DNA from: an uncultured Alphaproteobacteria bacterium
Lineage (GTDB): Bacteria > Pseudomonadota > Alphaproteobacteria > Rhizobiales > Hyphomicrobiaceae
NCBI GenBank assembly: GCA_963840425.1
Contig: CAWIYZ010000021.1
Span: forward strand, 21,075 to 85,074
Direction of reading: 5' to 3'
Length of the DNA stretch: 64,000 nt
Shown: positions 17,257 through 41,173 of the stretch, one piece after another
How positions within the stretch are numbered: the stretch's first letter is position 1
Layout: every line of letters starts with the position of its first letter
Translations under genes and position numbers: made by a program
The notes under the pieces: generated by a model
Told to the model about the DNA's origin: nothing
The model's input: the letters and a program-made list of their open reading frames with translations, nothing else
The model's database searches: none

Positions 17257-18126
17257 TTGCCCATGGCGCCACACATCATCACTCATGCGGAGGCCTACCT
17301 GAAGCGTTATGACGTCGTGTTCTGCGATGTCTGGGGCGTCGTGCATGATGGCGAGAACGCGTATGTGGAGGCCGGGGAAGCATTGGCAAGGTTCCGCGAG
17401 GCTGGCGGGACGGTGGTGTTGGTGTCCAATGCGCCATATCCCGCCGCCAGGGTCGCGACCGTTATCGACGCCAAAGGCGTTCGCCGCGACGCGTGGGATG
17501 CGATTGTTTCATCCGGCGATATAGCCAGGCGTCATGTCGCCGAGGCTGGCTACACTCGCGTGCATTGTATCGGTCCAGAGTCACGCGATCGCGCCCTGTT
17601 CGAGAGCTTGCCCGGTCGCCGGACTCCTCTTACTGACGCGGAGGTGGTCGTGTGCAGCGGCCTCGTGCACGATAGGACGGAGACAGCCGAGGACTACCGC
17701 GGTCTCCTCCAGCAGGCCTTGGCGCTGCGCCTGCCGCTCGTGTGTGCCAACCCGGATCTGATCGTCGATGTCGGGTCTGCGCGGCTGCCCTGCGCTGGAG
17801 CGATTGCCGTGCTTTACGAGCAGATGGGCGGGACGGTGTTCTGGGCCGGGAAGCCGCATCCAGCGGCCTATCAGACGGCTCTTGCAAGCGCTCAGGAATT
17901 GCGCGGAGCGTCAGTGTCGCCGGATCGCGTGCTCGCCATTGGCGATGCACTGCGCACCGATCTTGCGGCGGCTGAGGGAGCGAGCATAGACGCGCTATTC
18001 GTGGCCGGCGGCATCCATCGGCACGAGATCATGAATGGGGCCGACATCGATCCAGCGAGCCTGGCAGGCCTGTTTCGTTCAGGCGCTCCTCCGGCCGTTG
18101 CCGCCATGACTCAATTGAGATGGTGA
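17257..18126 (+). CDS. HAD-superfamily hydrolase (TIGR01459-like)
   Basis: N-terminal CDVWGVVHDG motif I, SNAP motif II and a C-terminal GDALRTD motif. Confidence 0.75.
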   Translation: MPMAPHIITHAEAYLKRYDVVFCDVWGVVHDGENAYVEAGEALARFREAGGTVVLVSNAPYPAARVATVIDAKGVRRDAWDAIVSSGDIARRHVAEAGYTRVHCIGPESRDRALFESLPGRRTPLTDAEVVVCSGLVHDRTETAEDYRGLLQQALALRLPLVCANPDLIVDVGSARLPCAGAIAVLYEQMGGTVFWAGKPHPAAYQTALASAQELRGASVSPDRVLAIGDALRTDLAAAEGASIDALFVAGGIHRHEIMNGADIDPASLAGLFRSGAPPAVAAMTQLRW

Positions 18127-18150: not shown

Positions 18151-19122
18151 TCACTTCTTTCCGGCAGGCGCCCGCCCGTCCGAGAACGCGCCGAAAACCA
18201 TGTCGGGCGAGGACGTGTTGTGGCGCGAGGGTGCGATGCGGCCAGCCCAGACATCCGTCGCTGTCGCGCGCTTGAAGGACATGATGCCGTCCTCGCGCCA
18301 GCCTTTGGCATCCTTCTCGCGCACGGCGATGCGCGCCACATCGTTGTTGAACTCCGTCACGAACATGGAGCGCAGTGTTGCGAAGGGACGGCCGCTGATC
18401 GGTCGGTCGAGCGTAACGTCCAGAATATTGCGATTCTGATCCGACTTCGTCATCACCAGCTTTGCCGATCCGCCCCGGTCGAACTGCAACGTGAAAGTTC
18501 GGCTTTTCGGATCGAATGCGACTTCGTTGATGCGAACGATCGGCCGCTCATCGATCTCCACCGGGCCAACAAGGAAAGATGAGCCGAAGGCTGTGGGAGC
18601 CATACCGGCGGGCGCCAGCGGGCGCAGGCGCCAGTATCCGTCCTGTGGGTAAAAGACGAGCACCTCTTCTCCCCCCATCGGTCTGATCATCCAAACCTGA
18701 AGCAGATGCAATCCGGTCTCGATGCGGTCACCGATACGCACCGTCGCGGTCGCGGGCCGCCAGAAGGTCGGGAACGTCAGTCCGACCACCCACATGTCGA
18801 TATCTTCATAAAGTGTCTTGCGCTTTGGCGGCGCGGCAGCCGGCAGTTGCGGATTGCCCGGGATGTCGCAGGCCGTCCAGTCGGCCTCGAAGCTGTCGCG
18901 CTGCAACGTCCCGATGTAGGCCGGATGCGCTGCTTCGATGCGAAACCTGCGCACGTCGCTCGACTGCATATTGATTGTGACGTTGTCCTTCTCGGCGCAC
19001 AGGACAGGCTCGCTGGCATTGGTCACCTCGACGGCAATGCCGTCGAGCGAGGCAGCATGCGCGGGCAAGGTCACGGCGCAAACGCAAACAGCTACGGCGA
19101 GACGGATGACTTTGCACAGCAT
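18151..19122 (-). CDS. Secreted protein of unknown function
   Basis: ORF 18151-19275; ATG at 19122 gives a clean signal peptide (MLCKVIRLAVAVCVCAVTLPAHA|AS). I recognised no motif. Confidence 0.6.
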   Translation of the reverse strand: MLCKVIRLAVAVCVCAVTLPAHAASLDGIAVEVTNASEPVLCAEKDNVTINMQSSDVRRFRIEAAHPAYIGTLQRDSFEADWTACDIPGNPQLPAAAPPKRKTLYEDIDMWVVGLTFPTFWRPATATVRIGDRIETGLHLLQVWMIRPMGGEEVLVFYPQDGYWRLRPLAPAGMAPTAFGSSFLVGPVEIDERPIVRINEVAFDPKSRTFTLQFDRGGSAKLVMTKSDQNRNILDVTLDRPISGRPFATLRSMFVTEFNNDVARIAVREKDAKGWREDGIMSFKRATATDVWAGRIAPSRHNTSSPDMVFGAFSDGRAPAGKK

Positions 19123-19184: not shown

Positions 19185-19973
19185 CTACTTGTGCAACACG
19201 CAGTAAATATCTCCCGAATTGGCGTCGTGCGGCAGGCCCTCGATGTGCAGCTGCATCTCGGTGGCTGTGACCCAATGGTCGAAACTAAGTGCGTGGTCCT
19301 CGCCCAGCGACAAATCAAATCGATAGTCGCCCAGGCCCATCATGTGGTCCAGGCAGCGCACCGCCACATCGCGCTGGATGGTCGTGAACTCGAATGACAA
19401 GGCGGGGAGTTGCACCGAAAGTCCGGCCAGAACGTCGGCCTCGAAACCTTCCACGTCGATCTTGGCGAACTGTGGCAGCCCATGCTCGGCGACCAGCGCA
19501 TCCAGTGTCGTCACCGGCACATCGACGGCCTGGTCCCAGACCTGTCCCTCCCAGCCGTCGGCACCGTCCGCGGCTTTCAGGAACTCCGCGGAGGCGGTGG
19601 TGACCGTAGGATTGCGAGTATTGATGTGCAGCGTGAGCGTGCCCGGCCGAGGACCACACGCCGCTTCACGTACGGTGACCTCCGGGTCGTCGGCATAAAT
19701 CGCCCTGATCGCGCGCGCACATAGAGGCTGCGGCTCGAGCGCGACGACACGGGCGCCCAGCCTGCGAAAGCTGCCGATCCGATCGCCGACATGCGCCCCG
19801 ATATCGAAGGCAAGTTGGCCCGGCTCCAGAAAGCGGGCATAGAGCGCGTCCATAGCCGCGTCGCGACTAGGATCCCCGTAGTAGACCTCCAAAGAGCGCT
19901 TCAGGCTCGCGAACGCCGGATCACCCTTGAGCGCATCTATCGTGGTTCGGCCTGCCATGTACGGCTCATGCAT
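19185..19973 (-). CDS. FkbM family methyltransferase
   Basis: FDIGAHVGDRIGSF (SAM motif I) and FAKIDVEGFE motifs. The start is ambiguous (20033, 19973 or 19958). I chose 19973, which overlaps the opgH stop by 8 nt. Confidence 0.7.
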   Translation of the reverse strand: MHEPYMAGRTTIDALKGDPAFASLKRSLEVYYGDPSRDAAMDALYARFLEPGQLAFDIGAHVGDRIGSFRRLGARVVALEPQPLCARAIRAIYADDPEVTVREAACGPRPGTLTLHINTRNPTVTTASAEFLKAADGADGWEGQVWDQAVDVPVTTLDALVAEHGLPQFAKIDVEGFEADVLAGLSVQLPALSFEFTTIQRDVAVRCLDHMMGLGDYRFDLSLGEDHALSFDHWVTATEMQLHIEGLPHDANSGDIYCVLHK

Positions 19974-21774
19974 TCTCTGCCAGCCCGATGGCCTTGATCT
20001 CTGCGGGAGGCGAGAAGTCCTCCGGGATGCCACACAGACCGAGCTTCTGGAAAAACCGCCCGAGCGCCGGCGCGGCCGTCAGCACCGCAAACGGAATAGC
20101 CACCAGATAACCCGCCGTTAGCGGCAGGCTCCACCAGAACACCGCAGGCTCTATCAGTAGCAGTGCCCCGCAGACGATGATGCCGAACAGTGTCTGTGGC
20201 CACAGGTTCTCCACCGCGGTGCGCCACGAAATGCCGTAGGCATCGCGCGACTGGCCGCCCCAGACGACCGATTTGCCGAACATCAGGCCGATCATGAAGA
20301 TGGTCGTGCGAATGGTGGAGACAGCACCCTGCAGGAAGGAGAACACCAGCTCGATCGCCGCACCGGCTGCGAAGCGAGCGAAACCGCCGTAACGCGCCAT
20401 GCCGCCGCGTGTCAGCACCACGTCTATGAGTCCGGCGATCTTCGGCATCAGGTACATGGTGAAAAACACGATGTAGAGGCCGATGGCCAGATCGGTCGGA
20501 AAGCTCGCGACGCTGCTGGCCTCCCAGGCTGCCGCCGGCAGCAGCGCGATCATCAGCGTCCACGCGGGAATGCCGAGGAACATGAGAATCGCCCACACGA
20601 GCTGAAAGCGGCTCATGGGGTACAGCGCCGGCGTGTCCAGCAGCTTGATGTATTGCATGTTGCCCTGGCACCAGCGCACATCGCGCTTGGCGAAGTCGAG
20701 CATGGTCGGGGGATTTTCCTCCCAGCTGTCGTTCTCGACCGGGAGGACGCGCACCTCGTAGCCGGCACGGCGCATGAAGGTCGCCTCGACCTGGTCATGC
20801 GAGAGCACGTGTCCGCCTAGTGGCGGCTTGCCGGGCAGCATCGGCAGTTCGCACTGCTCATGAAATGGCTTGAGGCGCACCACGGCGTTGTGGCCCCAGA
20901 ACGGTCCGCAGTCGCCGACCCACCAGGCTTGCCCCATGGTGTAAGAGCGCATGCCGTGCCGCATGCCGAACTGGAAGATGCGCGCGAAAGCCGATGACGA
21001 CGGCATGCCCACGACCAGGCTCTGCAGGATGCCGATCTTGGGGTGCGCCTGCATCATGCGCACGAGGCGGACGATGGCCGGTCCCGACATCAGGCTGTCG
21101 GCGTCGAGCGGCAGCATCAGCTCGTAGTCCTTGCCCCAGCGGGCGCAGAAGTCGCGCACGTTGCCAGCCTTGTATCCGGTGTTGTCGGTGCGCCGGCGAT
21201 ACGTGATGCGCGCGCGATCGGGGTCGTCCGCACGCCAGGCTGCAACAGTTTGCTCTTCGGCTTCCGCGACAGCGGGATCGTTCGTATCGGAGAGCACGAA
21301 ATAGCTGAATGTGCCTCCCTCGCCGGTCGCATCCACGCTGGCTTTGACGGTTCTGAGACGCAGAATGGCGCGCGCAGGATCCTCGTTGCGCAGCGTCATG
21401 AAGATCGCGGTCTTGATGCGCAGCCGAGCCGGATCTTCCCCAGCCACAGCATAGGGGGCGACCTGGGCCATCGAGCCTTTGTTGAAGTGCAGCAGCCAGA
21501 GGCCGATCAGCGCATTCCAGAACCCGAGCACGGTCCAAGGAGTACCGGCGGCGAAGCAGAGGTAAAGAACGACATCGACAATCGTCCACCCGCCGGCGCC
21601 CAGAATGCGCCCGGCCGCCCACATCATGGCCAGCCACGTCACGACATTGAGGATGATGACAATTCGGCGCCGGCGGGCCAGTTCCGCGTTTGCTTGTAGG
21701 CCAGTCGGTGTCGTAAGGGTCAAGGCCCCCGGCGCGAGCCCGGCGGGTGAGGACGTGTCGATGGTTTCACTCAT
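19966..21774 (-). CDS. opgH: Glucans biosynthesis glucosyltransferase H (osmoregulated periplasmic glucan synthase)
   Basis: ORF 19966-22170; ATG at 21774 (MSETIDTSSPAG). It has N-terminal TM helices, a GT2 core (RRTDNTGYKAGN, LPLDADS), the RDVRWCQGNMQY motif and C-terminal TM helices. Confidence 0.85.
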   Translation of the reverse strand: MSETIDTSSPAGLAPGALTLTTPTGLQANAELARRRRIVIILNVVTWLAMMWAAGRILGAGGWTIVDVVLYLCFAAGTPWTVLGFWNALIGLWLLHFNKGSMAQVAPYAVAGEDPARLRIKTAIFMTLRNEDPARAILRLRTVKASVDATGEGGTFSYFVLSDTNDPAVAEAEEQTVAAWRADDPDRARITYRRRTDNTGYKAGNVRDFCARWGKDYELMLPLDADSLMSGPAIVRLVRMMQAHPKIGILQSLVVGMPSSSAFARIFQFGMRHGMRSYTMGQAWWVGDCGPFWGHNAVVRLKPFHEQCELPMLPGKPPLGGHVLSHDQVEATFMRRAGYEVRVLPVENDSWEENPPTMLDFAKRDVRWCQGNMQYIKLLDTPALYPMSRFQLVWAILMFLGIPAWTLMIALLPAAAWEASSVASFPTDLAIGLYIVFFTMYLMPKIAGLIDVVLTRGGMARYGGFARFAAGAAIELVFSFLQGAVSTIRTTIFMIGLMFGKSVVWGGQSRDAYGISWRTAVENLWPQTLFGIIVCGALLLIEPAVFWWSLPLTAGYLVAIPFAVLTAAPALGRFFQKLGLCGIPEDFSPPAEIKAIGLAENA

Positions 21775-21873: not shown

Positions 21874-22845
21874 ATGGCACGCGCTGTCTGGTATGTCCGC
21901 AAAGGGGCCGTCGAGCTGCGCACTGCTCAGGTGCCGCCGCCCGGTCCCCATGAGGCGCTGGTCAGAACGCTTTTCAGCGGTATCAGCCGGGGTACAGAGC
22001 GTCTCGTTCTCAATGGCGGGGTGTCGGCTGGTGAGCGTGAGCGCATGCGCGCGCCGCTGCAGGAAGGCGCGTTTCCGTTCCCCGTCAAGTACGGCTATTG
22101 CGCCGCCGGAATCGTGGAGGACGGGCCGAAGGAGCTCGCTGGTCGCTCGGTTTTCTGCCTGCACCCGCACCAGGAGTATTTCGTCGCGCCGGTCACGATG
22201 CTGGTGCCGCTTCCCGACGGCCTTCCGCCCCGCCGGGCGACGCTGGCCGCCAATATGGAGACGGCCCTCAATGCGGTCTGGGATTCAGGCGCAGGTCCGG
22301 CGGACAGGATCGTGGTGGTTGGTGCCGGCGTGGTCGGCCTGCTCATCGGTTACCTCGCAGCCTGTTTGCCGGGCAGCGAGGTCACGCTGGTGGATGTCGC
22401 AGCGGCACGGGCCGATCTGGCGCGGCAGCTTGGAGTTCGATTTGCGGGACCTGAGGCGGCACCGAAGGACGCCGATGTCGTCTTTCACACCAGCGCGACG
22501 GCGGCAGGATTGGATACGGCCATAGCCGCGGCCGGCATGGAGGCAACGGTTGTGGAGGTGAGCTGGTATGGCGACAGCTCCGTGTCCGTCAATCTGGGCG
22601 GCGCGTTCCACAGCCGCCGCCTGAAACTGGTCTCCTCCCAGGTCGGCCAGGTGTCGCCGTCCCGGCGTCCGCGCTGGGACTATCGCCGCCGCCTTGAAGC
22701 GGCCTTGGGCCTGCTGCAAGACCCCACGCTCGACGCGCTGGTGAATGAAGAGATTCCATTCGAGGACACGCCGAAGGCGCTGCCGGCGGCGTTGGCGCCG
22801 GGCGCCCGCGGGCTGGCGCCGGTGATCCGCTATCCGGGAGCATAG
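21874..22845 (+). CDS. MDR-superfamily (zinc-ADH-like, BchC-like) dehydrogenase
   Basis: ORF 21814-22845; ATG at 21874 (MARAVWYVRKGAVEL). It has a GroES-like N-terminus and a Rossmann VVVGAGVVGLL motif. The position of the catalytic-zinc Cys motif reads SGISRGTE. Confidence 0.75.
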   Translation: MARAVWYVRKGAVELRTAQVPPPGPHEALVRTLFSGISRGTERLVLNGGVSAGERERMRAPLQEGAFPFPVKYGYCAAGIVEDGPKELAGRSVFCLHPHQEYFVAPVTMLVPLPDGLPPRRATLAANMETALNAVWDSGAGPADRIVVVGAGVVGLLIGYLAACLPGSEVTLVDVAAARADLARQLGVRFAGPEAAPKDADVVFHTSATAAGLDTAIAAAGMEATVVEVSWYGDSSVSVNLGGAFHSRRLKLVSSQVGQVSPSRRPRWDYRRRLEAALGLLQDPTLDALVNEEIPFEDTPKALPAALAPGARGLAPVIRYPGA

Positions 22846-22849
22846 GAGC

Positions 22850-23257
22850 TTGCAGATGTACGCCGTCGAGGTTCGCGATCGAATCATGATCGCCCACAGC
22901 CTGCCCGATCCGTTCTTCGGGCCAGCCCAGGGCATGCACGGCGCCACCTTCGTCGTCGACGTCGCATTCTTCCGCGAGCAATTGACCAAGCAGAACGTTG
23001 TCGTCGATATCGGTGCGGCGTTGGAGGTGCTGAACAGGACGCTGAAACCGCTGGGGTACAAGAACCTCGATGCGTTGCCGGAGTTCAAGGGCAAGCTGAC
23101 CACGACGGAATTCCTTTGCCGGCATATTTTCTATGCCGTCGCCAAGGCAGCGCGCGAGGGTGCGCTCGGGGATGACGGCAAGGGCCTCTCCAAGATCCGC
23201 GTGACGCTCGGCGAGACGGATCTGGCGCGCGCCTGGTTCGAGGGGCCCATCGGCTGA
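22850..23257 (+). CDS. 6-pyruvoyl-tetrahydropterin synthase (PTPS/QueD) fold protein, non-canonical active site
   Basis: 135 aa. The IAHSLP...GMHGATFVVDV pattern aligns by eye to the QueD AAHRLP...CGRLHGHSF motif. The start lies 4 nt after the upstream stop. Confidence 0.7.
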   Translation: MQMYAVEVRDRIMIAHSLPDPFFGPAQGMHGATFVVDVAFFREQLTKQNVVVDIGAALEVLNRTLKPLGYKNLDALPEFKGKLTTTEFLCRHIFYAVAKAAREGALGDDGKGLSKIRVTLGETDLARAWFEGPIG

Positions 23258-23260
23258 GCC

Positions 23261-24307
23261 GTGACCGACGCCGTCTTCGCCATACCCGGTGATATCGACC
23301 TGCCGACGGGCGGATACGCCTACGACCGCCGCGTGCTGGCGCTGCTGCCGGCCGCGGGGGTGAAGGTACAGCACCTCGAGCTGCCGGGGTCGTTTCCCGC
23401 GCCGAGTGAAAGCGATCTGACCGAGTCCGGTCGCAGGCTCGCCACCGCGTCCGCAAAGGCCGTGCTCCTGATCGACGGGCTCGCCTATGGCGCAATGCCG
23501 GCTGATGTCATCCGCCGCGCCAACGCTCCGATCGTCGCACTCGTGCATCATCCGCTGTGCCTGGAAGCCGGTTTGACACGGGTCAGGCAAAGAGAGCTAC
23601 ACACACTGGAGCAAGGCGCACTCCGTTTAGCGGCGCATGTCATCGTTACCAGCGCGACGACTGCACAAGCCTTGACAGCGGATTTTGGGGTGCCGGCCAG
23701 CAGGATCACGGTTGCTGTCCCGGGCACGGACGCAGCGCCGCGCGCGAAGGGAACGGGCAAGCCGCTGCAGCTTCTAGCCGTCGGCTCGGTTGTGCCGCGC
23801 AAGGCCTTCCACGTTCTCGTGCATGCGCTGGCTCCCTTGTCCGACCTCGATTGGCGTCTCAGCATTGTCGGATCGCTGGACCGCAGCGTTGCAGCGCCGG
23901 CAACGCTCAAGGACGCGATCGCGCAGAGGGGGCTCGAGGATCGCATCATGCTGGTCGGCCCCGCGAACCAGGGGCAGCTCGATGCGCACTATGATGCCGC
24001 CGACATTTTCGCCATGCCGTCTCTGTACGAAGGGTATGGCATGGTGCTGGCCGAGGCGATGGCGCGCGGGTTGCCGATCGTCTGCACCACGGGCGGAGCT
24101 GCTGCAAGCACGGTGCCTGATGCCGCCGGCATTAAAGTCCCGCCTGGAGACATCGAGGCATTCAGCGGCGCCATCGGCCACCTCATGAGCGATCCGGGGC
24201 TGAGACGGGATATGGCCGAGGCGTCTTGGACCGCGGGCCAGGCGCTGCCACGGTGGGAGGCGACGGCGAAGCAGATTGCAGAGGTTCTGCGGAGGGCAGT
24301 CGCATGA
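23261..24307 (+). CDS. Glycosyltransferase family 4 (GT-B, group 1)
   Basis: C-terminal PSLYEGYGMVLAEAMARGLPIV (EX7E-type) motif. GTG start 3 nt after the upstream stop. Confidence 0.8.
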   Translation: MTDAVFAIPGDIDLPTGGYAYDRRVLALLPAAGVKVQHLELPGSFPAPSESDLTESGRRLATASAKAVLLIDGLAYGAMPADVIRRANAPIVALVHHPLCLEAGLTRVRQRELHTLEQGALRLAAHVIVTSATTAQALTADFGVPASRITVAVPGTDAAPRAKGTGKPLQLLAVGSVVPRKAFHVLVHALAPLSDLDWRLSIVGSLDRSVAAPATLKDAIAQRGLEDRIMLVGPANQGQLDAHYDAADIFAMPSLYEGYGMVLAEAMARGLPIVCTTGGAAASTVPDAAGIKVPPGDIEAFSGAIGHLMSDPGLRRDMAEASWTAGQALPRWEATAKQIAEVLRRAVA

Positions 24308-25137
24308 GCGGATTTTCGCCGGAGTGGCTTGCACTGCGGGAGCCCGTAGATCATCGCTCACGCAGCAGCGATATTGCCCAGGCGCTGGCGGCACGCTTTC
24401 AGAAACGGCAGAAGATAACGGTCGTCGACCTCGGCTGCGGCACCGGCTCTAACCTGCGCGCGACGATGAGTTTATTGCCTTCCGAGCAGCAGTGGACGCT
24501 CGTTGATTTTGACGAGCAACTGCTTGCCGTCGCCAAACGCACGTTGATGGACTGGGCTGACCGCGCGGAAGCGGACGCTGACGGGCTTCTGCTCGATAAG
24601 GACGGCAAGCGGATCGCCGTCCAGTTCCAGCGCGCCGATCTCAACCGTGATCTCGACAGTGCACTCGGGCTGAAGCCTGATCTCGTTACCGCGGCGGCGC
24701 TGTTCGATCTGTGCTCGCCCGCGTTCATCAAGGCGTTCGCCAGGGCGGTTGCCGCTCGGCGGGCGGTGTTCTGTACTGTGCTCACGTACAACGGCATTCA
24801 GCGGTGGACACCGCGGCAGCCGAGTGATGGCGCCATGATCGCCGCCTTCCACGCCCATCAGATGACCGACAAGGGATTCGGGTCATCAGCAGGCCCGACC
24901 GCGCCGGCACACCTCGCCGACGCCTTTCGCCTGTCAGGCTATTCGGTCTCGGAAGGCGAGAGCCCGTGGGAGCTGAGCGCTGGCAACATCGACTTAGTCC
25001 GCAACCTCGCCTCGGGCTTCGCCGATGCAGTTGCCGAAACCGGCAAGGTCGATACCAAGACGATCGACGCGTGGCGCCGGGTCGTGCGCACGGGCGCGGT
25101 CGTCGGCCACACGGACACGCTGGCCACGCCCGCTTAA
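24304..25137 (+). CDS. Class I SAM-dependent methyltransferase
   Basis: ORF 24226-25137; ATG at 24304 overlaps the GT4 stop (ATGA). Motif I is VVDLGCGTGSN. Confidence 0.7.
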   Translation: MSGFSPEWLALREPVDHRSRSSDIAQALAARFQKRQKITVVDLGCGTGSNLRATMSLLPSEQQWTLVDFDEQLLAVAKRTLMDWADRAEADADGLLLDKDGKRIAVQFQRADLNRDLDSALGLKPDLVTAAALFDLCSPAFIKAFARAVAARRAVFCTVLTYNGIQRWTPRQPSDGAMIAAFHAHQMTDKGFGSSAGPTAPAHLADAFRLSGYSVSEGESPWELSAGNIDLVRNLASGFADAVAETGKVDTKTIDAWRRVVRTGAVVGHTDTLATPA

Positions 25138-25139
25138 GC

Positions 25140-25712
25140 TCAGCGGCGCAGGCTCGGCAGCATGCGCGTCAGCACATTGTCCTTGCGTATCAGGTAGTGA
25201 AACATGGCGGCGCCGAAATGCACTGCGACCATGGCCACTAGTAGCATCGCAAACCAGAAGTGCAGCCAGAAGGTTACGCCGGCCGCGTCCTGATTGGCCG
25301 AAACGAGACCCGGCAGAGAAATGCCGAACGCACTGAGCGCGGGGTATTGGGAGATGCCGATGTATCCAAGGAGTGGCACCAACAGCAGCAGGGCGTAGAG
25401 GCTCCAGTGATTGAGATGGCTGGCGATCTTCTGCCACCACTCGATGGTCGGCTCATCGGCCGGAGCGCCATGTATGAGACGATAGAGGAGCCGGGCAAGA
25501 ACGACGAAGAAGATGACGATGCCGATCAGCTTGTGGCTGCTGTAGAGATTGTTGGTGAGATCGTCGAAGATACCGAGCACGTTACCGCGATAGGCCATGT
25601 AGAGCCCGAGCGGCACCTGGATCACCACGAGAACGACGGTCCACCAGTGGAAACGCCGCGCCGTAGGACTATAGAGTTCCACCTGAGTTTCCTGGGTCGA
25701 AGTCCGCGCCAT
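25140..25712 (-). CDS. Cytochrome b561 family protein (CybB-like)
   Basis: Four TM helices with conserved His (RRFHWW, SHKLIG, HLNHW, WLHFW...AVHFGAAMFH). The start lies 2 nt after the upstream RibD_C stop. Confidence 0.8.
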   Translation of the reverse strand: MARTSTQETQVELYSPTARRFHWWTVVLVVIQVPLGLYMAYRGNVLGIFDDLTNNLYSSHKLIGIVIFFVVLARLLYRLIHGAPADEPTIEWWQKIASHLNHWSLYALLLLVPLLGYIGISQYPALSAFGISLPGLVSANQDAAGVTFWLHFWFAMLLVAMVAVHFGAAMFHYLIRKDNVLTRMLPSLRR

Positions 25713-25714
25713 GG

Positions 25715-26437
25715 TCAGCCCCCTTTTTGCTGATTTCTCAGGTCACAGTCGAATAGCACATCGCCGTCCGGCAGCACATGCACTTCGGTTACTGGTCGTA
25801 ACGCCTGAGACAGGGATTGGATCGGCTGGAGTGACAACCCCGGCTTGCCTGATCCGAGAATGACCGGGGCCACCAGCACATGCAGCCGATCCACCGCGCC
25901 GGCATCCAGGAAGGCGGAGATGGTGCGCGCACCGCCTTCGATCAGAAACGATTTGAGGCCAATGCTCCACAAGGCAGTGATGACGGATCGCGGCGGCAGC
26001 ACGCCGTTCTCCGGCATGACCCGGACGACCTCGATGCCGTCGATGTCGGCGCCACCCTCGGAGCGCACCACGATGCGGCGAGCGCCGTCGTCTGCGAGGC
26101 ATTTGGCCTGTAACGGTGCACGACCGGACGGGTCGATGACGACGCGCGCCGGGTGGCGCCCGGCCACGCGCCGTACGTTGAGACGCGGATCATCGGCAAC
26201 GACGGTGCCGACGCCGACAACAACCGCGTCCACCGCAGCGCGCAGGCTATGTACATGATTTAACGCGCATTCCCGGTTGATCCACTGGCTCTCCCCGGAC
26301 AGCGTCGCAATGCGTCCATCCAGAGATTGACCGAGTTGCGCCACGACAAAGGGCCGATCGCGGGGCGCCTGCATCACACGGCCAATGGCGGCGTCGGCGG
26401 TCGGGTGATGCGGCATCTCGCCGGAGCGATCGTTCAT
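25715..26437 (-). CDS. RibD C-terminal (reductase-only) domain protein
   Basis: ORF 25715-26761; ATG at 26437 (MNDRSGEMPHH). AQLGQSLDGRIA, VVVGVGTVVADDPRLNVR and FLIEGGARTISAFL are typical of the pyrimidine reductase domain. There is no CMP/dCMP-type deaminase domain. Confidence 0.75.
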   Translation of the reverse strand: MNDRSGEMPHHPTADAAIGRVMQAPRDRPFVVAQLGQSLDGRIATLSGESQWINRECALNHVHSLRAAVDAVVVGVGTVVADDPRLNVRRVAGRHPARVVIDPSGRAPLQAKCLADDGARRIVVRSEGGADIDGIEVVRVMPENGVLPPRSVITALWSIGLKSFLIEGGARTISAFLDAGAVDRLHVLVAPVILGSGKPGLSLQPIQSLSQALRPVTEVHVLPDGDVLFDCDLRNQQKGG

Positions 26438-26566
26438 TGGCTGGACCCGGGGCGCCGTGGCGAGCCTGAAGGCGGAGTTCGAAAGACAGTCGGCCCGGCG
26501 TTCCAAGTCAAGTGCTATAGAAGCGCCGTGGCGGTTTGATGAAACCATGGAGGGGATGAACGATAC

Positions 26567-28931
26567 ATGAGGCGGCCCGGACATCGGTTGCCGGATGTAG
26601 GTTTGCGCGAGCTGTCGGGCCGAGGCGCGCTCCTTGCCGATAGGCCGGAAAAGAGCTCGCCTTGGCTGCTGTGGCCAGTTGTCCTTGCATTCACGGCCTG
26701 CTTTGTCGCCATGACATGGCCTTGGCTTACCGGGCAGGTCACGAATTCCCTGGGATGCCAAAGCCCATTTCCAGCCGCAGATCCAGTTTCTGGCCGATAG
26801 CTTGGCGCGCGGCGAGTGGCCGTTCTGGAATCCCTTCGTGTTTTCCGGTCAGGTGCAGATCGCCGACCCGCAGTCGATGATTTTTTCCCCGCCGTTCCTG
26901 TTGCTGGCGCTGACCAATTCTCGGCCGAGCCTGTGGGCCGTTGATGCCACGGTGCTGGCTTCTATGTTTGGCGGTGGTGTGGCTCTGCTCGCCTGGTTTC
27001 GCGACCGAGGCTGGCACTGGGCCGGCGCGCTGATCGCGGCCATTGCCTTCAGCTTCGGAGGGGCGATGGCGTGGCGCATCCAGCACATCGGCCAAGTGCT
27101 GAGCCTCGCCTATCTACCCTTGGCGCTGCTCTGCCTCGACCGGGCGATCGGGCGGGCCTCGGCAACCTGGGGTGCGGCGACGGGCATCGTTGTCGGGTGC
27201 ATTGTTCTCGGTCGCGACCAGGTGGCGCTGTTGTGCGTCTATCTGCTCGCGGCTTATGCGATCTGGCAGTTGGCCACGAGCGCCGACCTTCGTTCCGGAC
27301 TAGCTCGGCGTGTGGCCGCGCTCGGGATAGGCGCCGTGACCGGGTTGGCATTGATTGCTATTCCCATAGTGCTCACCGCACTGCTGGCCGGCGGCTCCAA
27401 CCGCCCGGCAATCGACTTCATCGGCGCGGGGCGCGGTTCCCTGCACCCGGCGCTGCTGCTGACAGCTCTGATGCCCGATGTGTTCGGCGCGGCCGGCGAC
27501 ATGCAGGACTATTGGGGACCGCCGAGCTTCGCCTGGCGCGATACGGACCTGTTCATCGCCCAGAATGTGGGCCAGCTCTACATCGGCGCCATTCCGTTCC
27601 TGCTGGTCATGAGTGCGCTCGTACGCGGACGGTTATGGGAGAAGGAGGTTCGCTTCTTCCTGATCGCCGCAAGCATCATGCTGCTCTATGCGCTTGGTTG
27701 GTTCACACCAGCCTTTCGGCTCATGTATGCGCTCATGCCGGGCGTCAACCTGTATCGACGGCCGGCTGATGCCGTGTTTCTCGTCGGTGCTCTCGGAGCG
27801 ATTCTTGCCGGCTATGCAGCGCATTTATTGTTTTCCCGACCGTGGGATCGCCCTACGCAGAAGCATCTCGCCCTTTTAGCCGGGATCGTTCTGGCCGCAT
27901 TCGTGGTGGCCGTGTTTGTGGGGCTGCTGATCGGCCGTGTGGGCCGAGTATGGGTGCCGATCTTTAGTGCCGTGCTTTTTCTCGGTGCAGGGACGCTCGC
28001 GCTCGCCTGGGCGCGCGGCAGAATTGCATTGGAGCCGTTGCTGGCAGCGGGCGTTCTAGCCGGACTCACGAGTGTCGATCTTGCCTGGAACAACGGTCCC
28101 AACACTTCCTCGGCTCTACCGCCGGCTCATTATGATGTGCTCGAGCCCACGACAGACAACGCGACGATCGCGCTGCTCAAAGCGAAAGTCGAGGCGGGCG
28201 AAGCGCGGCGGGATCGAATCGAGCTTGCAGGCCTCGGCTTCCATTGGCCCAACGCCAGCATCACACATCGCCTGGAAAATACGCTCGGCTACAATCCGCT
28301 GCGGCTCGGCCTCTACAGTAGTGCGACCGGTGCGCAGGACCACGTGGGTCTGCCGGACCAACGTAAGTTCGCTCCACTCATGCCATCCTATCGCTCGCGC
28401 ATGGCGGACCTGTTGGGTTTGCGATTTATTGCAACCGGCGCACCAGTCGAGCAGATCGACACGCGTTTGAGGCCGGGTGACTTGTCATTCATCGCCCGCA
28501 CGGCCGACGCCTACGTGTACGAGAATCCCAGGGCGCTGCCTCGCGTCCTGTTCGCGGGGAGCGCCCGCAAGGTTGATTTCGACGAGCTGATCAAGACCGG
28601 CGCCTGGCCCGAGTTCGATCTAACGCGGACGGTCTTGATCGAGCAAGTCGAGGAGCGTGTGGAGCGCCGGCCGGGTAGTGCGGCGATCAGATCCTACGGG
28701 AACACCGATATCGTCATCGACGCTGATAGTCCGGACGGCGGATGGGTGGTGCTCAACGATGTGTGGCATCCCTGGTGGACTGCCACACTCAATGGCCGCG
28801 ATGCGCAGCTCCTGCGAGCCAACGTGCTTTTCCGGGCGGTGCAAGTCCCGCCCGGGAGGCAAGTCGTTCGTTTTACATTCAGGCCGCTATACGGCGCGTG
28901 GGCCGAGCTGACCGGGCGGACCCGTCACTGA
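26567..28931 (+). pseudogene. Large polytopic membrane protein, GT-C / YfhO-like (possibly the PTPS_related family), with a +1 frameshift near the 5' end
   Basis: The main ORF 26802-28931 (709 aa, many TM helices) extends upstream in-frame to 26715 as IPWDAKAHFQPQIQFLADSLARGEWPFWNPF. ORF 26567-26800 supplies a first TM helix (LLWPVVLAFTACFVAMTWPWLTGQVT). The two frames join if one A of the AA run at 26744-26745 is skipped. The span is 3n+1 nt. Confidence 0.65.
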
Positions 28932-28943
28932 GGCCGGCATGCC

Positions 28944-29606
28944 TCAGAGTTGGTGCGCCATGCGCTCCTTCTTGGTCGACAGGTAGCGCTTGTTGTGCGG
29001 AGTTGGCTCGCAGATCACGGGCAGCCGCTCTACAACGACGATGCCCGCGGCACGCAAGGCATCGACCTTGGCCGGATTGTTGGTCAGCAGCTTGATCTTC
29101 GGGAAGCCGAGGTCGAATAGAATCTGCGCTGCCAGATTGTAGTCGCGCGCGTCGATGGGCGCGCCGATCTCGACGTTGGCGTCGACCGTGTCGAGCCCTT
29201 GATCCTGCAGAGCATAGGCCTTGATCTTGTTGACGAGACCAATCCCGCGCCCCTCGTGGTAGGGCAGATAGAGCAGAACCCCGTTCGGCACGCGGGTGAT
29301 ATGCGCCATCGCCGCCTGAAGCTGGGCGTAGCAGTCGCAGCGCAGCGAATGGAAGATGTCGCCAGTCACGCAACCGCTGTGCACGCGCACCACCGGCAGC
29401 ACGGCACTGTCATCCTCATACTCGTTGATCAGCGCCAGAGCCTGGCAGTTCGGATCCAATCCCTGGTAGGCGCGAGCCTCCAGGTTCAGCTCACGGCCTT
29501 GAAACTCGATAGGCAAAATCGTCTGCGCGGTCCAATCGACATCCAACTTGATTGATTTCACTGCACTCGATCTCATCCGCGCCTCCAGACGAAACGCCAG
29601 GCGCAT
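28944..29606 (-). CDS. ribA: GTP cyclohydrolase II
   Basis: Zinc/catalytic motifs RVHSGCVTGDIFHSLRCDCYAQL, YHEGRGIGLVNKIKAYALQDQGLDTVDAN and LLTNNPAKV. An alternative start is at 29576. Confidence 0.85.
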   Translation of the reverse strand: MRLAFRLEARMRSSAVKSIKLDVDWTAQTILPIEFQGRELNLEARAYQGLDPNCQALALINEYEDDSAVLPVVRVHSGCVTGDIFHSLRCDCYAQLQAAMAHITRVPNGVLLYLPYHEGRGIGLVNKIKAYALQDQGLDTVDANVEIGAPIDARDYNLAAQILFDLGFPKIKLLTNNPAKVDALRAAGIVVVERLPVICEPTPHNKRYLSTKKERMAHQL

Positions 29607-29849
29607 ATGCCATCACGGCACTGGCCACGTAAAGGCGTTGCTTTGTTCATTAGTCGGTTCACACGGTGGGTGTGCGAGAGCTCCGCATTCACGATCGACG
29701 ATGAAGTCGCAGTCCCACTTTGTTTCGGCTTTGCTCGTTAACCATCACCTCGTCCCACCCGATGTCGCGCTCAGGTAAGCTTATCTTTGCTGAACCACAG
29801 ATGAATGCCATGGGGAGCCGGATAGTCGTTCTGATGTCGTGCAAGGTCT

Positions 29850-30281
29850 TCAACGGCGTCCGCGAAAGACGCCAAAGCGCATGGCCAGATAAGAGAAGAC
29901 CGCTGCCACGATTGAGGCCAGAACAAGCGCAGCTAGTGGCCATGTCTCGGGCCGCAAAAGCAAAATTGATGCGAACGTCCCGTAGTTTATGGCTGCTGCG
30001 GTCCACGCCATAGTCGCATAACGGGCAAATTCAGTAGCGGTCGGACGCGACTGCAGTGCAAAGGTCAAGGTGCGGTGGGAAAGCCAGCCCGCAACCATGG
30101 CTATGCCGATGGCGAGCAGCCTTGCCAGTAACGGATGGAGATGCAGCAGCCGGATGCCGGCCTCCAGGATAGCCCCATCGACCAGGAGGGCGATCAAGCC
30201 CGAGGCGATGAAGCCGCCCCAATGCGCGGCGACTGAGCGTCGCCCGTTGCCGTCGGCTGGAGCAACACCCTCGCCCGTCAT
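29850..30281 (-). CDS. GtrA family membrane protein (polyprenyl-phosphate sugar flippase-like)
   Basis: 143 aa with four predicted TM helices and GtrA-like spacing (GGFIASGLIALLVD ... WLSHRTLTF). The start lies 3 nt after the upstream stop. Confidence 0.7.
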   Translation of the reverse strand: MTGEGVAPADGNGRRSVAAHWGGFIASGLIALLVDGAILEAGIRLLHLHPLLARLLAIGIAMVAGWLSHRTLTFALQSRPTATEFARYATMAWTAAAINYGTFASILLLRPETWPLAALVLASIVAAVFSYLAMRFGVFRGRR

Positions 30282-30284
30282 GCC

Positions 30285-31166
30285 TCAGACTCGCTTCCAG
30301 TCGACGGGCGGACCATCCGTCTGGCGCTCCGGCCGCCACAGGAGGGAAGGCAGGGCCGCATAGCGCGCGATCGCGTCATACTCGTCCCCCCTCCGCGCGA
30401 GAATAGGATCGATCTCGCGTAGCGTGCCATCAACGTGGCCGGGGTGGCACATAATGAGGTGGCGCTCTGTTGTAGCCGACAATGCCGCAGTGAGCTCCCG
30501 CGTGTAGGACTTGCGGTGATCGAAGGAGGAAACTCCCGCAAAGCTCGTATTGATGATGAAGCCAAGCGCGTGTGCCGCACGGCCAAATCCGAAAGAGAGA
30601 AGGGCAATCAACAAGGACTTACCCACGGCTGAGTTGCGCGCGAAGACCTTCGACGGATCGTCCGCTGGATTGCGCACCAGCGGCAGTCGGTCGGGAAAGT
30701 AAGCGGCTAGTGCCGCAAGAACCCCGTCCCGCACTCTCGGCAGTGCATGGACATGTTGATGGCCATCGACATGATCCGGCGCAAAGCCAAGCTCGGTTTC
30801 GAAGCGCGCGAGCTGGCGCGTAACCTCAGCGGCGATCTCGTCGCCATGGACGCGGCGCGAGAGCGCCAGCGTGAGGAGCGTGCGGAGGCTGGGTAAGCGG
30901 CCGTCGGGGGCAACGGACGGCATCGGTCCAAGGGGGGCGCCGAACGTCAAATTGATGTGCAGACCAACGGCAATGCGGTCGCGGACTGCGCGCAGCCGCC
31001 GTGCGTCCTCAGGCCAACGGTCGAGAGTGACAATGGCGCTGGTCGCGGAAAGTCTCTCACGTCCGGCAAGCTCCAGAATCGCCTCCGAGATGCCCGCACC
31101 CATTGCATAGTCATCGGCGCAAAGAATGACCTGATGCCGGCCTTCGCGAGCAGGTGCCCCTGTCAC
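30285..31166 (-). CDS. ChbG/HpnK/YdjC family carbohydrate deacetylase
   Basis: ILCADDYAM (Asp pair) and HVDGHQHVH motifs. ATGA overlap with the upstream GT2 gene. Confidence 0.8.
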   Translation of the reverse strand: MTGAPAREGRHQVILCADDYAMGAGISEAILELAGRERLSATSAIVTLDRWPEDARRLRAVRDRIAVGLHINLTFGAPLGPMPSVAPDGRLPSLRTLLTLALSRRVHGDEIAAEVTRQLARFETELGFAPDHVDGHQHVHALPRVRDGVLAALAAYFPDRLPLVRNPADDPSKVFARNSAVGKSLLIALLSFGFGRAAHALGFIINTSFAGVSSFDHRKSYTRELTAALSATTERHLIMCHPGHVDGTLREIDPILARRGDEYDAIARYAALPSLLWRPERQTDGPPVDWKRV

Positions 31167-32221
31167 TGCTCGGCGCCCTTTGCGCTCGCCGATGGCTTGT
31201 CCAGGGTGGCGGCGGTCAGGTTGCCGACGGTCTCGGCCACGATGAACAGCGGTCGGCCCTTCACCTCCTCGTACACACGCCCGAGGTATTCACCGATGAC
31301 GCCCAGTGAAATGAGCTGCACGCCAGCGAAAAACATGACGGAGACGATGAGCGATGGAAAACCCGGAACGTCAATACCATAGAGAAGCGTCGTGACCAGA
31401 ACCACCAGCGAGTAGAGGAAGGCGCAGGCCGCCACCAGGAGTCCCAGGTAGGACCAGACGCGCAGCGGCATCGTTGTGAACGAGGCGAGGCCATCGAGGG
31501 CAAAATGCAACAGCTGGCGCGGGCGCCAGCGTGATTGCCCATCGCTGCGCATCTCCACATCATAGGGCACGCCGATCGACTTGAATCCGATCCAGGCATA
31601 GAGGCCCTTGTTGAAACGGGCGCGCTCGCCCATGCGGTTGAGGACATCTATCGCTTTGCGGTCGATCAAACGGAAATCTCCCGCACCGTCGGGCAGCTCC
31701 GTGCCAGAAACCGATCTGAAGACCTTGTAGAACGTGCGTGCCGCCCATCTATGGAGCGCCGTGTCGGTCTGCCGGTCCGTCCTCTGCCCATAAACGATGT
31801 CGAAGCCGTCATCCCATCGCGCTACAAACTCGGTGATCAGCTCAGGAGGGTGCTGCAGATCACCGTCCATCACCACCGCAGCATCGCCCGATGCGAATCT
31901 GAGACCCGCGGCTACGGCGACCTCCTTGCCGAAGTTGCGGCTGAGCGACACGGCCTTGAAGCGGGCGTCACGGTCATGCAAAGCGCGCAATGCGTAGAGC
32001 GTGGCGTCTGTGGAGCCGTCGTCGATGAAAATCACGTCCCAAGTCCGGCCGAGCGGCTCCAATGCGGCTCGCAATCGCTCCTCCAGTGCCGTCAGGCCGC
32101 CAGCCTCGTTGAGAACGGGGATCACGACGGTGAGGGATCGCTTCCCTGCCTTTGTTGTCGCCCCGTCATCACCATGACTCCCGGAATGGGTCTGCAGCAC
32201 GGTTAAGGCCTCCAGTTTCAT
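31163..32221 (-). CDS. Family 2 glycosyltransferase, polyprenyl-phosphate glycosyltransferase type (ArnC/GtrB/DPM1-like)
   Basis: ORF 31163-32329; ATG at 32221 (MKLEALTVLQ). Motifs VVIPVLNE, IFIDDGSTD and VVMDGDLQHPPE, followed by two C-terminal TM helices. Confidence 0.8.
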   Translation of the reverse strand: MKLEALTVLQTHSGSHGDDGATTKAGKRSLTVVIPVLNEAGGLTALEERLRAALEPLGRTWDVIFIDDGSTDATLYALRALHDRDARFKAVSLSRNFGKEVAVAAGLRFASGDAAVVMDGDLQHPPELITEFVARWDDGFDIVYGQRTDRQTDTALHRWAARTFYKVFRSVSGTELPDGAGDFRLIDRKAIDVLNRMGERARFNKGLYAWIGFKSIGVPYDVEMRSDGQSRWRPRQLLHFALDGLASFTTMPLRVWSYLGLLVAACAFLYSLVVLVTTLLYGIDVPGFPSLIVSVMFFAGVQLISLGVIGEYLGRVYEEVKGRPLFIVAETVGNLTAATLDKPSASAKGAEQ

Positions 32222-38771: not shown

Positions 38772-38816
38772 CTGCATTTGCAACTGCCAGCTGCGCTCGA
38801 CCCCAAAGGCGGGACC

Positions 38817-40262: not shown

Positions 40263-40291
40263 TCAGCTGCAACGAATGCACTGATGCGTCG

Positions 40292-41173
40292 TCAATGCCG
40301 CGTTTCGCCCGGTGCAGTCGAGGCCGTGATGACGGACCCGTCCGCTGCCTGTGCGGGAGGTCCCGCGCTCGCTTCCCATGCGCGCTTTTCATGGGCAAAG
40401 CGCCGATAGCTCAGAGGAATCACAGCCAGATAGAGCAGCGTGACCACGGTCAACGTGCCATAGGGATAGGTCACCAGCAGCCCGACGAGTGCGGCAACGC
40501 CGATCAAGATCGGCAGCACCAGCTCGCGCTCGATGCGTTCGCCCAGCAGCTTGCCCGAATAGGTCGGGATCGTCGAAACCAGCAAGAACGCCATGCACAG
40601 GGTGTAAAGGGCGATGAGCAGCGGGAACGCCCGGACGTCGAAAAAGCCCAGGCCGTTCACATAGAGCGGAAGCAGGACCGTGATGGCTCCGGCCGGCGCC
40701 GGCATGCCGGTAAAGTAATTGGACTGCCACTTGGGTTTGTCGACGTCGAGCATGGCGTTGAAGCGGGCGAGTCTCAGGCCCATGGCGCATGCGAAAACCA
40801 GGGCGGCTATCCAGCCGAAGCCTTTGAGGTCGCCGAGACCCCACGTGAATACGAGCACCGCTGGTGCCACGCCGAAATTGACGAAATCGGCAAGACTGTC
40901 GAGCTCGGCGCCGAAGCGGGACTGTGCCTTGAGCGCGCGCGCGAGACGCCCGTCGACGCCATCGAGCAGCGCCGCAATGACGATCAGCGCCAGAGCCAGC
41001 TCGAGCCGGCTCTCGATGGCCATGCGGATGGCGGTTACGCCCGCGCATAGGCTGAGCAGAGTGAAGAAGTTAGGCAGCAACAGCCGGACAGGAATCTTGC
41101 GATGCCGGAACAACAGGCGCCGCCGGCGCCGGCGTTCGCCCTCCACTAAACTAGGCTCCAATGGCTCGATCAT
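40292..41173 (-). CDS. pssA: CDP-diacylglycerol--serine O-phosphatidyltransferase
   Basis: CDP-alcohol phosphatidyltransferase motif DGVDGRLARALKAQSRFGAELDSLAD; multiple TM helices; downstream of psd. Confidence 0.9.
   Translation of the reverse strand: MIEPLEPSLVEGERRRRRRLLFRHRKIPVRLLLPNFFTLLSLCAGVTAIRMAIESRLELALALIVIAALLDGVDGRLARALKAQSRFGAELDSLADFVNFGVAPAVLVFTWGLGDLKGFGWIAALVFACAMGLRLARFNAMLDVDKPKWQSNYFTGMPAPAGAITVLLPLYVNGLGFFDVRAFPLLIALYTLCMAFLLVSTIPTYSGKLLGERIERELVLPILIGVAALVGLLVTYPYGTLTVVTLLYLAVIPLSYRRFAHEKRAWEASAGPPAQAADGSVITASTAPGETRH

Follow-up and report, generated by a model that had tools for sequence, protein, structure and literature searches.

The 64-kb stretch of alphaproteobacterial DNA analyzed here (hereafter the window, whose numbering is used throughout) carries a cluster of genes which includes those for a GTP cyclohydrolase II, a RibD_C reductase and a protein with the T-fold of 6-pyruvoyltetrahydropterin synthase (PTPS). 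Domains were assigned by profile searches (Pfam and NCBIfam) together with a listing of the open reading frames (ORFs), and the PTPS-fold protein was found to be the orthologue of Streptomyces coelicolor SCO6650, belonging within COG0720 to the PTPS-IV subfamily. The locus adds one more member to the PTPS-IV (SCO6650-type) cluster family, which has been noticed before, and does not represent a new kind of system. In our reading, the cluster is probably a branch that diverts the first intermediate of the riboflavin pathway into a methylated and glycosylated compound destined for the cell envelope. The genes of the central segment are as follows.

21874-22845, plus strand: medium-chain dehydrogenase/reductase of the polyol-dehydrogenase type, first gene of a four-gene core operon (profile search)
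22850-23257, plus strand: PTPS-IV T-fold protein (PTPS-fold profile, 66.7 bits)
23261-24307, plus strand: GT4 glycosyltransferase (profile search)
24304-25137, plus strand: class I S-adenosylmethionine (SAM)-dependent methyltransferase (profile search)
25140-25712, minus strand: membrane di-haem cytochrome b561, CybB family (Ni_hydr_CYTB, 92 bits)
25715-26437, minus strand: stand-alone RibD_C pyrimidine reductase (RibD_C, 139.5 bits)
26588-28931, plus strand: membrane glycosyltransferase of GT-C fold (YfhO/ArnT-like), frameshifted (fold search on an intact relative)
28944-29606, minus strand: GTP cyclohydrolase II, RibA type (177 bits)

All genes named in an earlier note on this DNA were recovered where it had placed them and with the domains it had given; what its list omitted from its own range was the membrane glycosyltransferase gene at 26588-28931 (plus strand). 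The functional unit also reaches past the limits drawn there, to the mdoH gene described below and probably further. The ORF coordinates bore out the close spacing of the four plus-strand genes (stop/start distances of +4, +3 and -4 nt, the methyltransferase start overlapping the GT4 stop by 4 nt) and agreed with the 2-nt gap from the reductase gene to that of cytochrome b561. Since its relatives are 133 amino acids long, the PTPS-IV gene probably starts at the ATG at 22856 rather than at 22850, which would make the first gap 10 nt. The base composition of the window was unremarkable; a scan of the whole 64 kb with Rfam gave no family above threshold, the flavin mononucleotide (FMN) riboswitch included, and a promoter and terminator scan of the window gave background level.

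The only strong relative of known structure for the PTPS-fold protein was SCO6650 (3d7j), with an E value of 1.2e-33, compared with 0.35 for rat PTPS. In COG0720, PTPS-IV is marked by the signature FGPAQ, which replaces the CxxxHGH and CxxxxxHGH motifs (PMC5445326). This signature was present in the window protein (PFFGPAQGMHGA), and among 30 diverse PTPS-IV members F23, G24 and A26 were invariant and P25 nearly invariant. Mapping on rat PTPS revealed that the zinc histidines H16 and H30 were kept and the third had become Ala32, that the catalytic cysteine corresponded to Gly24 and the Asp-His pair to Gly69 and Tyr70, and that the TTTE motif and Glu122, which anchor the pterin or pyrimidine, were retained in PTPS-IV. 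With the catalytic cysteine, the Asp-His pair and a zinc histidine lost, QueD or PTPS activity was rejected; the NCBIfam QueD and PTPS models scored far under their cut-offs on the window protein. An exact look-up of this protein gave no match, and the family as a whole comprised 1081 clusters (50% identity) at E<1e-3 and 502 at E<1e-10. Membership was also seen in the neighbourhood, GTP cyclohydrolase II (PF00925) and RibD_C (PF01872) both lying within 7 kb in the window; a PTPS-IV neighbourhood with PF00925 and PF01872 has been reported already, with PF00925 mislabelled there as GTP cyclohydrolase I (PMC5445326).

Recurrence of the cluster in other genomes

A pattern scan for PTPS-IV loci, with one genome taken per species, gave at least 597 confirmed loci and hence at least 597 species-level genomes with the family. 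The best 80 loci were kept, and neighbours were counted by tblastn with all window proteins in the 45 of them with flanks of about 10 kb to either side (full-flank loci). The methyltransferase was present in 42 of the 45, the dehydrogenase in 41 and GT4 in 39; RibD_C and mdoH were each found in 29, cytochrome b561 and an FkbM methyltransferase each in 24, GTP cyclohydrolase II in 15, the secreted protein encoded at the end of the mdoH operon in 12 and the HAD-IIA phosphatase in six. For a gene present once or twice per 5-Mb genome, the chance of lying within 10 kb was estimated at <1%, and the clustering is far beyond chance. The earlier note had held that its idea would fall if the neighbourhood were not conserved in relatives; it clearly is conserved. 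The gene set which it called orphan is a conserved cluster; the implied novelty does not stand, the PTPS-IV/SCO6650-type cluster having already been noted (PMC5445326, PMC5041015). Full-text literature searches turned up no paper characterising the cluster or its product. Traces of it reportedly go back to 2006-2012, in the form of the variant cyclohydrolase SCO6655, the SCO6650 structure and the label 'PTPS-IV'.

The cluster recurred across Alpha-, Beta- and Gammaproteobacteria and Actinomycetota, and the carriers of the family are soil, aquatic and plant-associated bacteria as well as marine algae. Annotated plasmid copies with the same core were found in Methylosinus, Agrobacterium, Thiodictyon, Streptomyces and Microbacterium, those of Thiodictyon and Agrobacterium also having cytochrome b561. 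In Paracoccus, the cyclohydrolase, dehydrogenase, PTPS-IV, methyltransferase and RibD_C genes formed one co-directional block, a minimal operon that adjoined an FkbM methyltransferase gene and a resistance-nodulation-division (RND) efflux pump. Three Paracoccus loci had no GT4 gene within 10 kb, and therefore the aglycone is probably made by the five enzymes of this block. It was also noticed that RND efflux pump genes directly adjoined the cluster in Paracoccus sp. ME4 (L048, 1841-6675) and on the plasmid of Methylosinus trichosporium OB3b (L004, 2541-8531); these pumps are possible exporters of the product. In four close relatives (L009, L012, L014 and L056), unrelated genes occupied the usual dehydrogenase and mdoH site beside PTPS-IV-GT4-methyltransferase(-cytochrome b-RibD_C-GT-C), and the dehydrogenase and mdoH are therefore elsewhere or absent there. 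A gene of the glyoxalase/bleomycin-resistance fold lay between the dehydrogenase and PTPS-IV genes in L090 (17079-17531), with a homologue in L031.

GTP cyclohydrolase II and the RibD_C reductase

The cyclohydrolase looked intact, as the earlier note had judged: it has the motifs HSGC...RCDCY and KAYALQ, the cysteines that bind zinc and residues equivalent to Tyr105, Arg128 and Lys154, and its 207.4 bits on the NCBIfam RibA model NF001591 exceed the cut-off of 148. Zinc-binding cysteines and an equivalent of Tyr105 were kept in 23 of 23 proteobacterial cluster-linked cyclohydrolases, that of the window included. Given its Tyr105 equivalent, the window enzyme is predicted to make 2,5-diamino-6-ribosylamino-4(3H)-pyrimidinone 5'-phosphate (DARoPP, also written DAROPP) from GTP, which would be the first step of the pathway, carried out by this copy or by a housekeeping one. 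GTP cyclohydrolase II is the least constant cluster member, and the window copy may be the general RibA of the lineage and not a dedicated enzyme.

The SCO6650-SCO6655 cluster, read in its S. fungicidicus equivalent, shares with the window the core of dehydrogenase, PTPS-IV, GT4 and methyltransferase and a nearby GTP cyclohydrolase II. It differs in the Met variant of its cyclohydrolase, in the presence of genes for a creatininase-family (deformylase-type) protein and a CDP-alcohol phosphatidyltransferase and in the absence of RibD_C within 10 kb, whereas the window has a Tyr-type cyclohydrolase, a RibD_C of the Gln type described below, cytochrome b561 and a divergent mdoH. The Streptomyces cyclohydrolase has Met at the Tyr105 position, and its gene adjoins the creatininase-family gene. 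In work on SCO6655, Met at this position is reported to mark a variant that forms formylaminopyrimidine (FAPy), stopping at the formylated intermediate, and partly on this basis the Tyr-type and the Streptomyces Met-type versions would both lead to DARoPP. FAPy deformylase activity has been proven for members of the creatininase family, namely ArfB of archaea and BrbF of rhizobia (PMC9478397), and the creatininase-family gene of the Streptomyces-type cluster gave a weak match to the ArfB model.

The short cyclohydrolase type to which the window copy belongs (HSGC...CDCY) also accompanied the cluster in L090 and L096. In L092/L093 and L094/L095 the short cyclohydrolase gene adjoined polyprenyl-phosphate-type envelope glycosylation genes (compare window 28944-32221), its neighbours there being GT2-YdjC-GtrA, a sulfatase, a GT87-like gene and Glycos_transf_4; this adjacency could be inherited synteny or a functional link.

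With regard to the reductase, tblastn with Escherichia coli RibD matched residues 147-337 only, in agreement with the earlier description of a RibD homologue consisting of the reductase domain alone. As had also been noted, ribB, ribH and ribE are not nearby: with the E. coli Rib proteins and FolE as tblastn queries, none of them was found in the whole 64 kb, nor was a deaminase or folE. A housekeeping riboflavin operon was rejected, there being no deaminase, ribB, ribH or ribE in the 64 kb and no FMN riboswitch. Substrate preference in this enzyme family is governed by the equivalent of E. coli RibD Lys152, where Lys goes with the deaminated substrate (5-amino-6-ribosylaminouracil 5'-phosphate, AROPP) and Thr (yeast Rib7) or Asn (archaea) with DAROPP, and the substitution T35K in yeast Rib7 reverses the preference (PMC3631187). 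When the window protein and 52 cluster-linked homologues were aligned, this position was Gln in 52 of the 53 sequences, His in one, and never Lys. The best relatives of known structure were archaeal DAROPP reductases (2azn, 6p8c), that of Methanocaldococcus jannaschii among them. The protein did not pass the archaeal reductase equivalog TIGR01508 (107.9 bits, cut-off 186.45) and reached 140.7 bits on the riboflavin-specific RibD C-terminal model, the cut-off of which is 150. Judged from these comparisons, the reductase would work like an archaeal DAROPP reductase while forming a separate subfamily, and its predicted substrate is 2,5-diamino-6-ribosylamino-pyrimidinone 5'-phosphate; it cannot be a normal housekeeping RibD.

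The second step would then be direct reduction of DARoPP by the deaminase-less RibD_C, in the archaeal and fungal order, to a 2,5-diamino-6-ribitylamino compound. To our knowledge, such a compound is never made in normal bacterial riboflavin synthesis. The earlier note had expected a product of this kind, and the idea gains its strongest new support from Gln, not Lys, at the specificity position, the archaeal best structural matches being a further point in its favour. ArfA/ArfB/ArfC and yeast Rib7 resemble the order predicted for the window in that the ribosyl chain is reduced before or without deamination and the specificity residue is not Lys. The window reductase differs from the archaeal and fungal enzymes in having Gln rather than Asn or Thr, and the locus differs from their riboflavin route in lacking a Rib2-type deaminase and lumazine and riboflavin synthases, with tailoring and membrane genes attached instead. 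The cytochrome b561 gene is co-operonic with that of the reductase, which suggests that the compound is redox-active at the membrane.

The likeness to the archaeal route also bears on a different explanation, in which the cluster would supply 5-amino-6-ribitylamino-uracil, the precursor of riboflavin, lumazine and the F420 chromophore, in the archaeal order, with PTPS-IV as the missing deaminase, not of the cytidine deaminase (CDA) type, that acts on the reduced pyrimidine. Apart from the resemblance of the reductase to archaeal ArfC, it can draw on the Streptomyces version, which mirrors ArfA/ArfB logic, on the unusual early riboflavin steps known in Rhizobiales (PMC9478397) and on an unpublished remark linking PTPS-IV to F420 (PMC5041015). 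It leaves unexplained the near-obligatory dehydrogenase, GT4 and methyltransferase partners, the mdoH or CDP-alcohol-transferase partners and cytochrome b561. Lumazine synthase, riboflavin synthase and ribB are absent from the window, no F420-biosynthesis domain was found among the 35 window ORFs scanned with Pfam, and copies on accessory plasmids are unlikely to be housekeeping. We consider this supply role very unlikely.

Tailoring genes and ring chemistry

The dehydrogenase, described in the earlier note as BchC-like, was only remotely so, with 50 bits on TIGR01202 (bchC) against a cut-off of 291.25, and a true BchC identity was rejected on this score. It matched ADH_zinc_N with only 24 bits, and its nearest solved relatives were sorbitol, iditol, galactitol-1-P, idonate and threonine dehydrogenases; the motif GICGTD had become GISRGTE, with the catalytic-zinc cysteine replaced. 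Two proteins of the dinoflagellate Polarella glacialis (P0230 and P0392) contained PTPS-IV, a HAD domain and the dehydrogenase in one polypeptide, and a metagenomic relative (P0234) had the same fusion plus a methyltransferase-like stretch, detected in this protein only. The PTPS-IV part of the fusions was 41-43% identical to the window protein, and the dehydrogenase part had 30-34% identity over nearly the full window enzyme (E 1e-27 to 1e-35). Because they are fused in the dinoflagellate proteins, the dehydrogenase and the T-fold protein appear to act in one pathway. The HAD domain of the fusions was not detectably of the same subfamily as the HAD-IIA phosphatase of the window; the latter is a possible dephosphorylating enzyme with a weak link to the pathway. 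In haptophytes (Emiliania/Gephyrocapsa; P0154, P0393 and P0394), three PTPS-IV domains were found in tandem.

The third step is speculative: one of the hydroxyls on the ribityl chain would be oxidised by the polyol-dehydrogenase-like enzyme, and the T-fold protein would bind the 2-amino-4-oxo-pyrimidine ring and help it to rearrange or close into a bicyclic (pteridine-like) or otherwise modified scaffold. In the fourth, the SAM methyltransferase would methylate the scaffold and GT4 would glycosylate it, and a phosphatase may strip the 5'-phosphate. The nearest solved relatives of GT4 were sucrose-phosphate synthase, MshA, PimB' and BshA, the acceptors of which are small phosphorylated polyols or sugars, or malate; by analogy, a phosphoribityl chain as acceptor would fit this pattern. 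Comparison of the methyltransferase with solved structures gave no informative relative.

A specific version of the third step is a route to pterin glycosides that is independent of GTP cyclohydrolase I. Here, DARoPP would be reduced and then re-oxidised at the 2'-hydroxyl by the dehydrogenase, with the net effect of the Amadori rearrangement in the GTP cyclohydrolase I reaction. Ring closure by the T-fold protein would give a pterin of the dihydroneopterin-phosphate type, on which GT4 and the methyltransferase would act in the manner of cyanobacterial pteridine glycoside formation. The retained TTTE motif and Glu, which anchor pterins, speak for this route, as do the polyol-dehydrogenase type of the dehydrogenase, the survival through the reductase of the 2-amino group that pterins need and the presence of reductase, dehydrogenase, T-fold protein and methyltransferase together in the minimal Paracoccus operon. 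Cyanobacterial pteridine glycosyltransferases are group-1 (GT4-like) enzymes, and cyanopterin has a methylated sugar. The chemistry of the route is, however, purely inferred, the catalytic triad of PTPS is absent from the T-fold protein, and proteins of the RibD_C fold could equally be dihydropterin reductases. We know of no GTP cyclohydrolase I-independent pterin route of this kind, and regard this one as quite unlikely.

As the earlier note had remarked, the gene set matches neither the toxoflavin nor the pteridine-glycoside systems, no deaminase and no GTP cyclohydrolase I being found in the 64-kb window. The opening enzymes of toxoflavin biosynthesis (ToxABCDE) are a GTP cyclohydrolase II and the RibD-like ToxE, a full deaminase-reductase, and a SAM methyltransferase takes part as well; unlike the window, the toxoflavin cluster is without a T-fold protein, GT4, a polyol-type dehydrogenase, cytochrome b and mdoH. 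A toxoflavin-type cluster was rejected on the absence of the deaminase domain, judged by the ToxE-type domain, as ToxC and ToxD were not searched for. The pteridine-glycoside systems of cyanobacteria and Chlorobium resemble the window in combining a PTPS-fold protein with a glycosyltransferase of group 1, and some of their products carry methylated sugars, whereas the window has no GTP cyclohydrolase I and its PTPS-IV protein is without the catalytic cysteine, the Asp-His pair and one zinc histidine. In the vicine and convicine pathway of faba bean (VC1), the product of GTP cyclohydrolase II gives rise to glycosylated aminopyrimidines (bioRxiv 10.1101/2020.02.26.966523), and DARoPP can therefore feed a pyrimidine glycoside. 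The plant pathway differs from our proposal in that the ribosyl chain is lost, not reduced, and in that its enzymes besides the cyclohydrolase are unrelated or unknown.

Envelope-linked neighbours and possible product

On both sides of the central segment, further genes were assigned as follows.

17257-18126, plus strand: HAD-IIA phosphatase, TIGR01459 family (profile search)
18151-19119, minus strand: secreted protein without family match, last gene of the mdoH operon (signal-peptide-like N-terminus, MLCKVIRLAVAVCVCAVTLPAHA)
19185-19958, minus strand: FkbM-family methyltransferase, downstream of mdoH (profile searches)
19966-21774, minus strand: MdoH/OpgH glucan glucosyltransferase, subfamily NF003963 (946.6 bits, cut-off 884)
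29850-32221, minus strand: GT2 (PgfS/ArnC-like polyprenyl-phosphate glycosyltransferase), YdjC-family deacetylase and GtrA-type protein (profile searches)

The mdoH gene, whose product passes the NCBIfam MdoH equivalog cut-off (NF003963) and so resembles OpgH/MdoH glucan synthesis, is divergent from the dehydrogenase gene across a 99-nt spacer. The same divergent pair was found in 57 loci, with a spacer typically of 40-250 nt, and NF003963 was the best match of all eight other cluster-linked mdoH copies tested (from Alpha- and Betaproteobacteria). A 14-locus alignment of the spacer contained no conserved motif, the mean column identity being 39%. Unlike OpgH systems, the window has no visible opgG or opgD, and the PTPS-IV operon is the specific partner of its mdoH subfamily. 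An alternative module of a CDP-alcohol phosphatidyltransferase, an MprF-like flippase domain and a protein annotated as 'sulfatase' was found, in part or whole, in four of the 16 full-flank loci without mdoH. Thus, mdoH and this module were present in 29 and four of the 45 loci, respectively, and never together.

The GT2, YdjC and GtrA genes lie upstream of the cyclohydrolase gene and are co-oriented with it. From their similarities, they and the GT-C gene are assigned to an Arn/Lgm-like periplasmic glycosylation module, mirroring ArnC/ArnD/ArnT-like logic. The GT2/YdjC/GtrA module adjoined the cluster in the window arrangement in L090 and L096 and in another arrangement in L002, L003, L008 and L010.

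Both alternative modules are embedded in the membrane and feed or face the envelope, cytochrome b561 is a membrane protein too, and on this co-occurrence alone the product would be delivered to the envelope. In the fifth step, it would be handed over, in the window and most Alphaproteobacteria, via the MdoH/OpgH-subfamily glucan synthase, the FkbM methyltransferase and the secreted protein, and in other lineages via the CDP-alcohol phosphatidyltransferase and MprF-like flippase domain, so far as co-occurrence can indicate. The product could take the form of a glucan primer or substituent, or of a phospholipid head group. In its most specific form, the proposal is a new class of envelope-bound, redox-active compounds derived from GTP, namely a ribitylamino-pyrimidine or an 8-/6-substituted pteridine, methylated and glycosylated, placed in glucans by a dedicated OpgH subfamily or as an outward-flipped phospholipid head group, with cytochrome b561 as the electron partner; taken as a whole, this is on balance unlikely. 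If true, the class would span hundreds of bacterial species as well as fused enzymes in marine dinoflagellates and haptophytes. Identification of the product would establish that DARoPP, a riboflavin precursor, has a further, new fate, and solving the cluster would assign functions to a T-fold subfamily, a Gln-signature reductase subfamily and possibly an OpgH subfamily. Handles for this are offered by the five-gene Paracoccus operon, the Methylosinus and Agrobacterium plasmid copies, the mutually exclusive membrane modules and the eukaryotic dehydrogenase-T-fold fusion.

Several points weigh against a branch from the riboflavin pathway to the envelope. Neither RibD_C nor the cyclohydrolase was within 10 kb in 14 of the 45 full-flank loci, and neither membrane module was present in 12. 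The third to fifth steps are inferred. Instead of catalysing a reaction, the PTPS-IV T-fold protein might bind or carry a ligand, since Spoonamore et al. in 2008 reportedly found SCO6650 to be without zinc and without PTPS activity, with a pocket suited to a pterin-like ligand. An aside that PTPS-IV is 'involved in the synthesis of F420', from unpublished data (PMC5041015), is not explained by such a branch. Moreover, a Filomicrobium genome and another lineage (L092-L095) have the short cyclohydrolase type with no PTPS-IV gene within 10 kb.

The last point also serves the view that the association is a coincidence, in which a housekeeping ribA happens to lie among envelope-polysaccharide genes, RibD_C is a dihydrofolate reductase-like enzyme acting on an unrelated substrate and the four-gene operon serves to produce or alter a sugar or polyol destined for the periplasmic glucans. 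There the short cyclohydrolase gene adjoins envelope-glycosylation genes even without PTPS-IV; in the window the cyclohydrolase passes the ordinary RibA model, mdoH, FkbM, GT2/YdjC/GtrA and GT-C genes surround the locus, and the relatives of the dehydrogenase and GT4 use sugars and polyols. Against this, RibD_C and the cyclohydrolase are enriched beside PTPS-IV across phyla, including single Paracoccus operons and Agrobacterium plasmid copies, and the Streptomyces cluster couples a variant cyclohydrolase with a deformylase-family gene. The reductase, with its family-wide Gln signature, comes to 140.7 of the 150 bits set as cut-off by the riboflavin-specific model, and T-fold proteins bind purine or pterin rings. 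Coincidence is, in our judgement, highly improbable.

Two of the envelope-linked proteins were modelled. No Pfam or NCBIfam family matched the secreted protein (18151-19119, minus strand), and the single-sequence AlphaFold model of its 322 amino acids had a predicted local distance difference test score (pLDDT) of 33 and was unusable. The GT-C gene of the window is frameshifted by one extra A near 26744, reading CACGAATTCC compared with CACGATTCC in the 99%-identical metagenome contig L096; it is either a pseudogene or the result of an assembly error. L096 encodes an intact GT-C protein of 780 amino acids (P0400), the AlphaFold model of which had a pLDDT of 74 and a predicted template modelling score (pTM) of 0.78. 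A Foldseek search of the PDB with this model returned GT-C enzymes for all of the top 26 matches, with TM-scores of only 0.37-0.49, ArnT coming first (E 1.8e-7), followed by AftA, EmbA/B, STT3 and PglB; the Pfam YfhO match of the protein was below threshold.

Outside the cluster, the large subunit of a molybdenum hydroxylase (xanthine-dehydrogenase family; 13572-15858, minus strand) was split into two overlapping ORFs with MoCoBD_1 divided between them, probably a second frameshift, which hints at assembly indel errors. At 38778-41173, 6-9 kb beyond the cluster, the window also contains a ManC-type GDP-mannose synthesis gene and a PssA-like CDP-alcohol phosphatidyltransferase gene (CDP-OH_P_transf and CDP-OH_P_tran_2), a synteny shared by L090; both are probably housekeeping genes.

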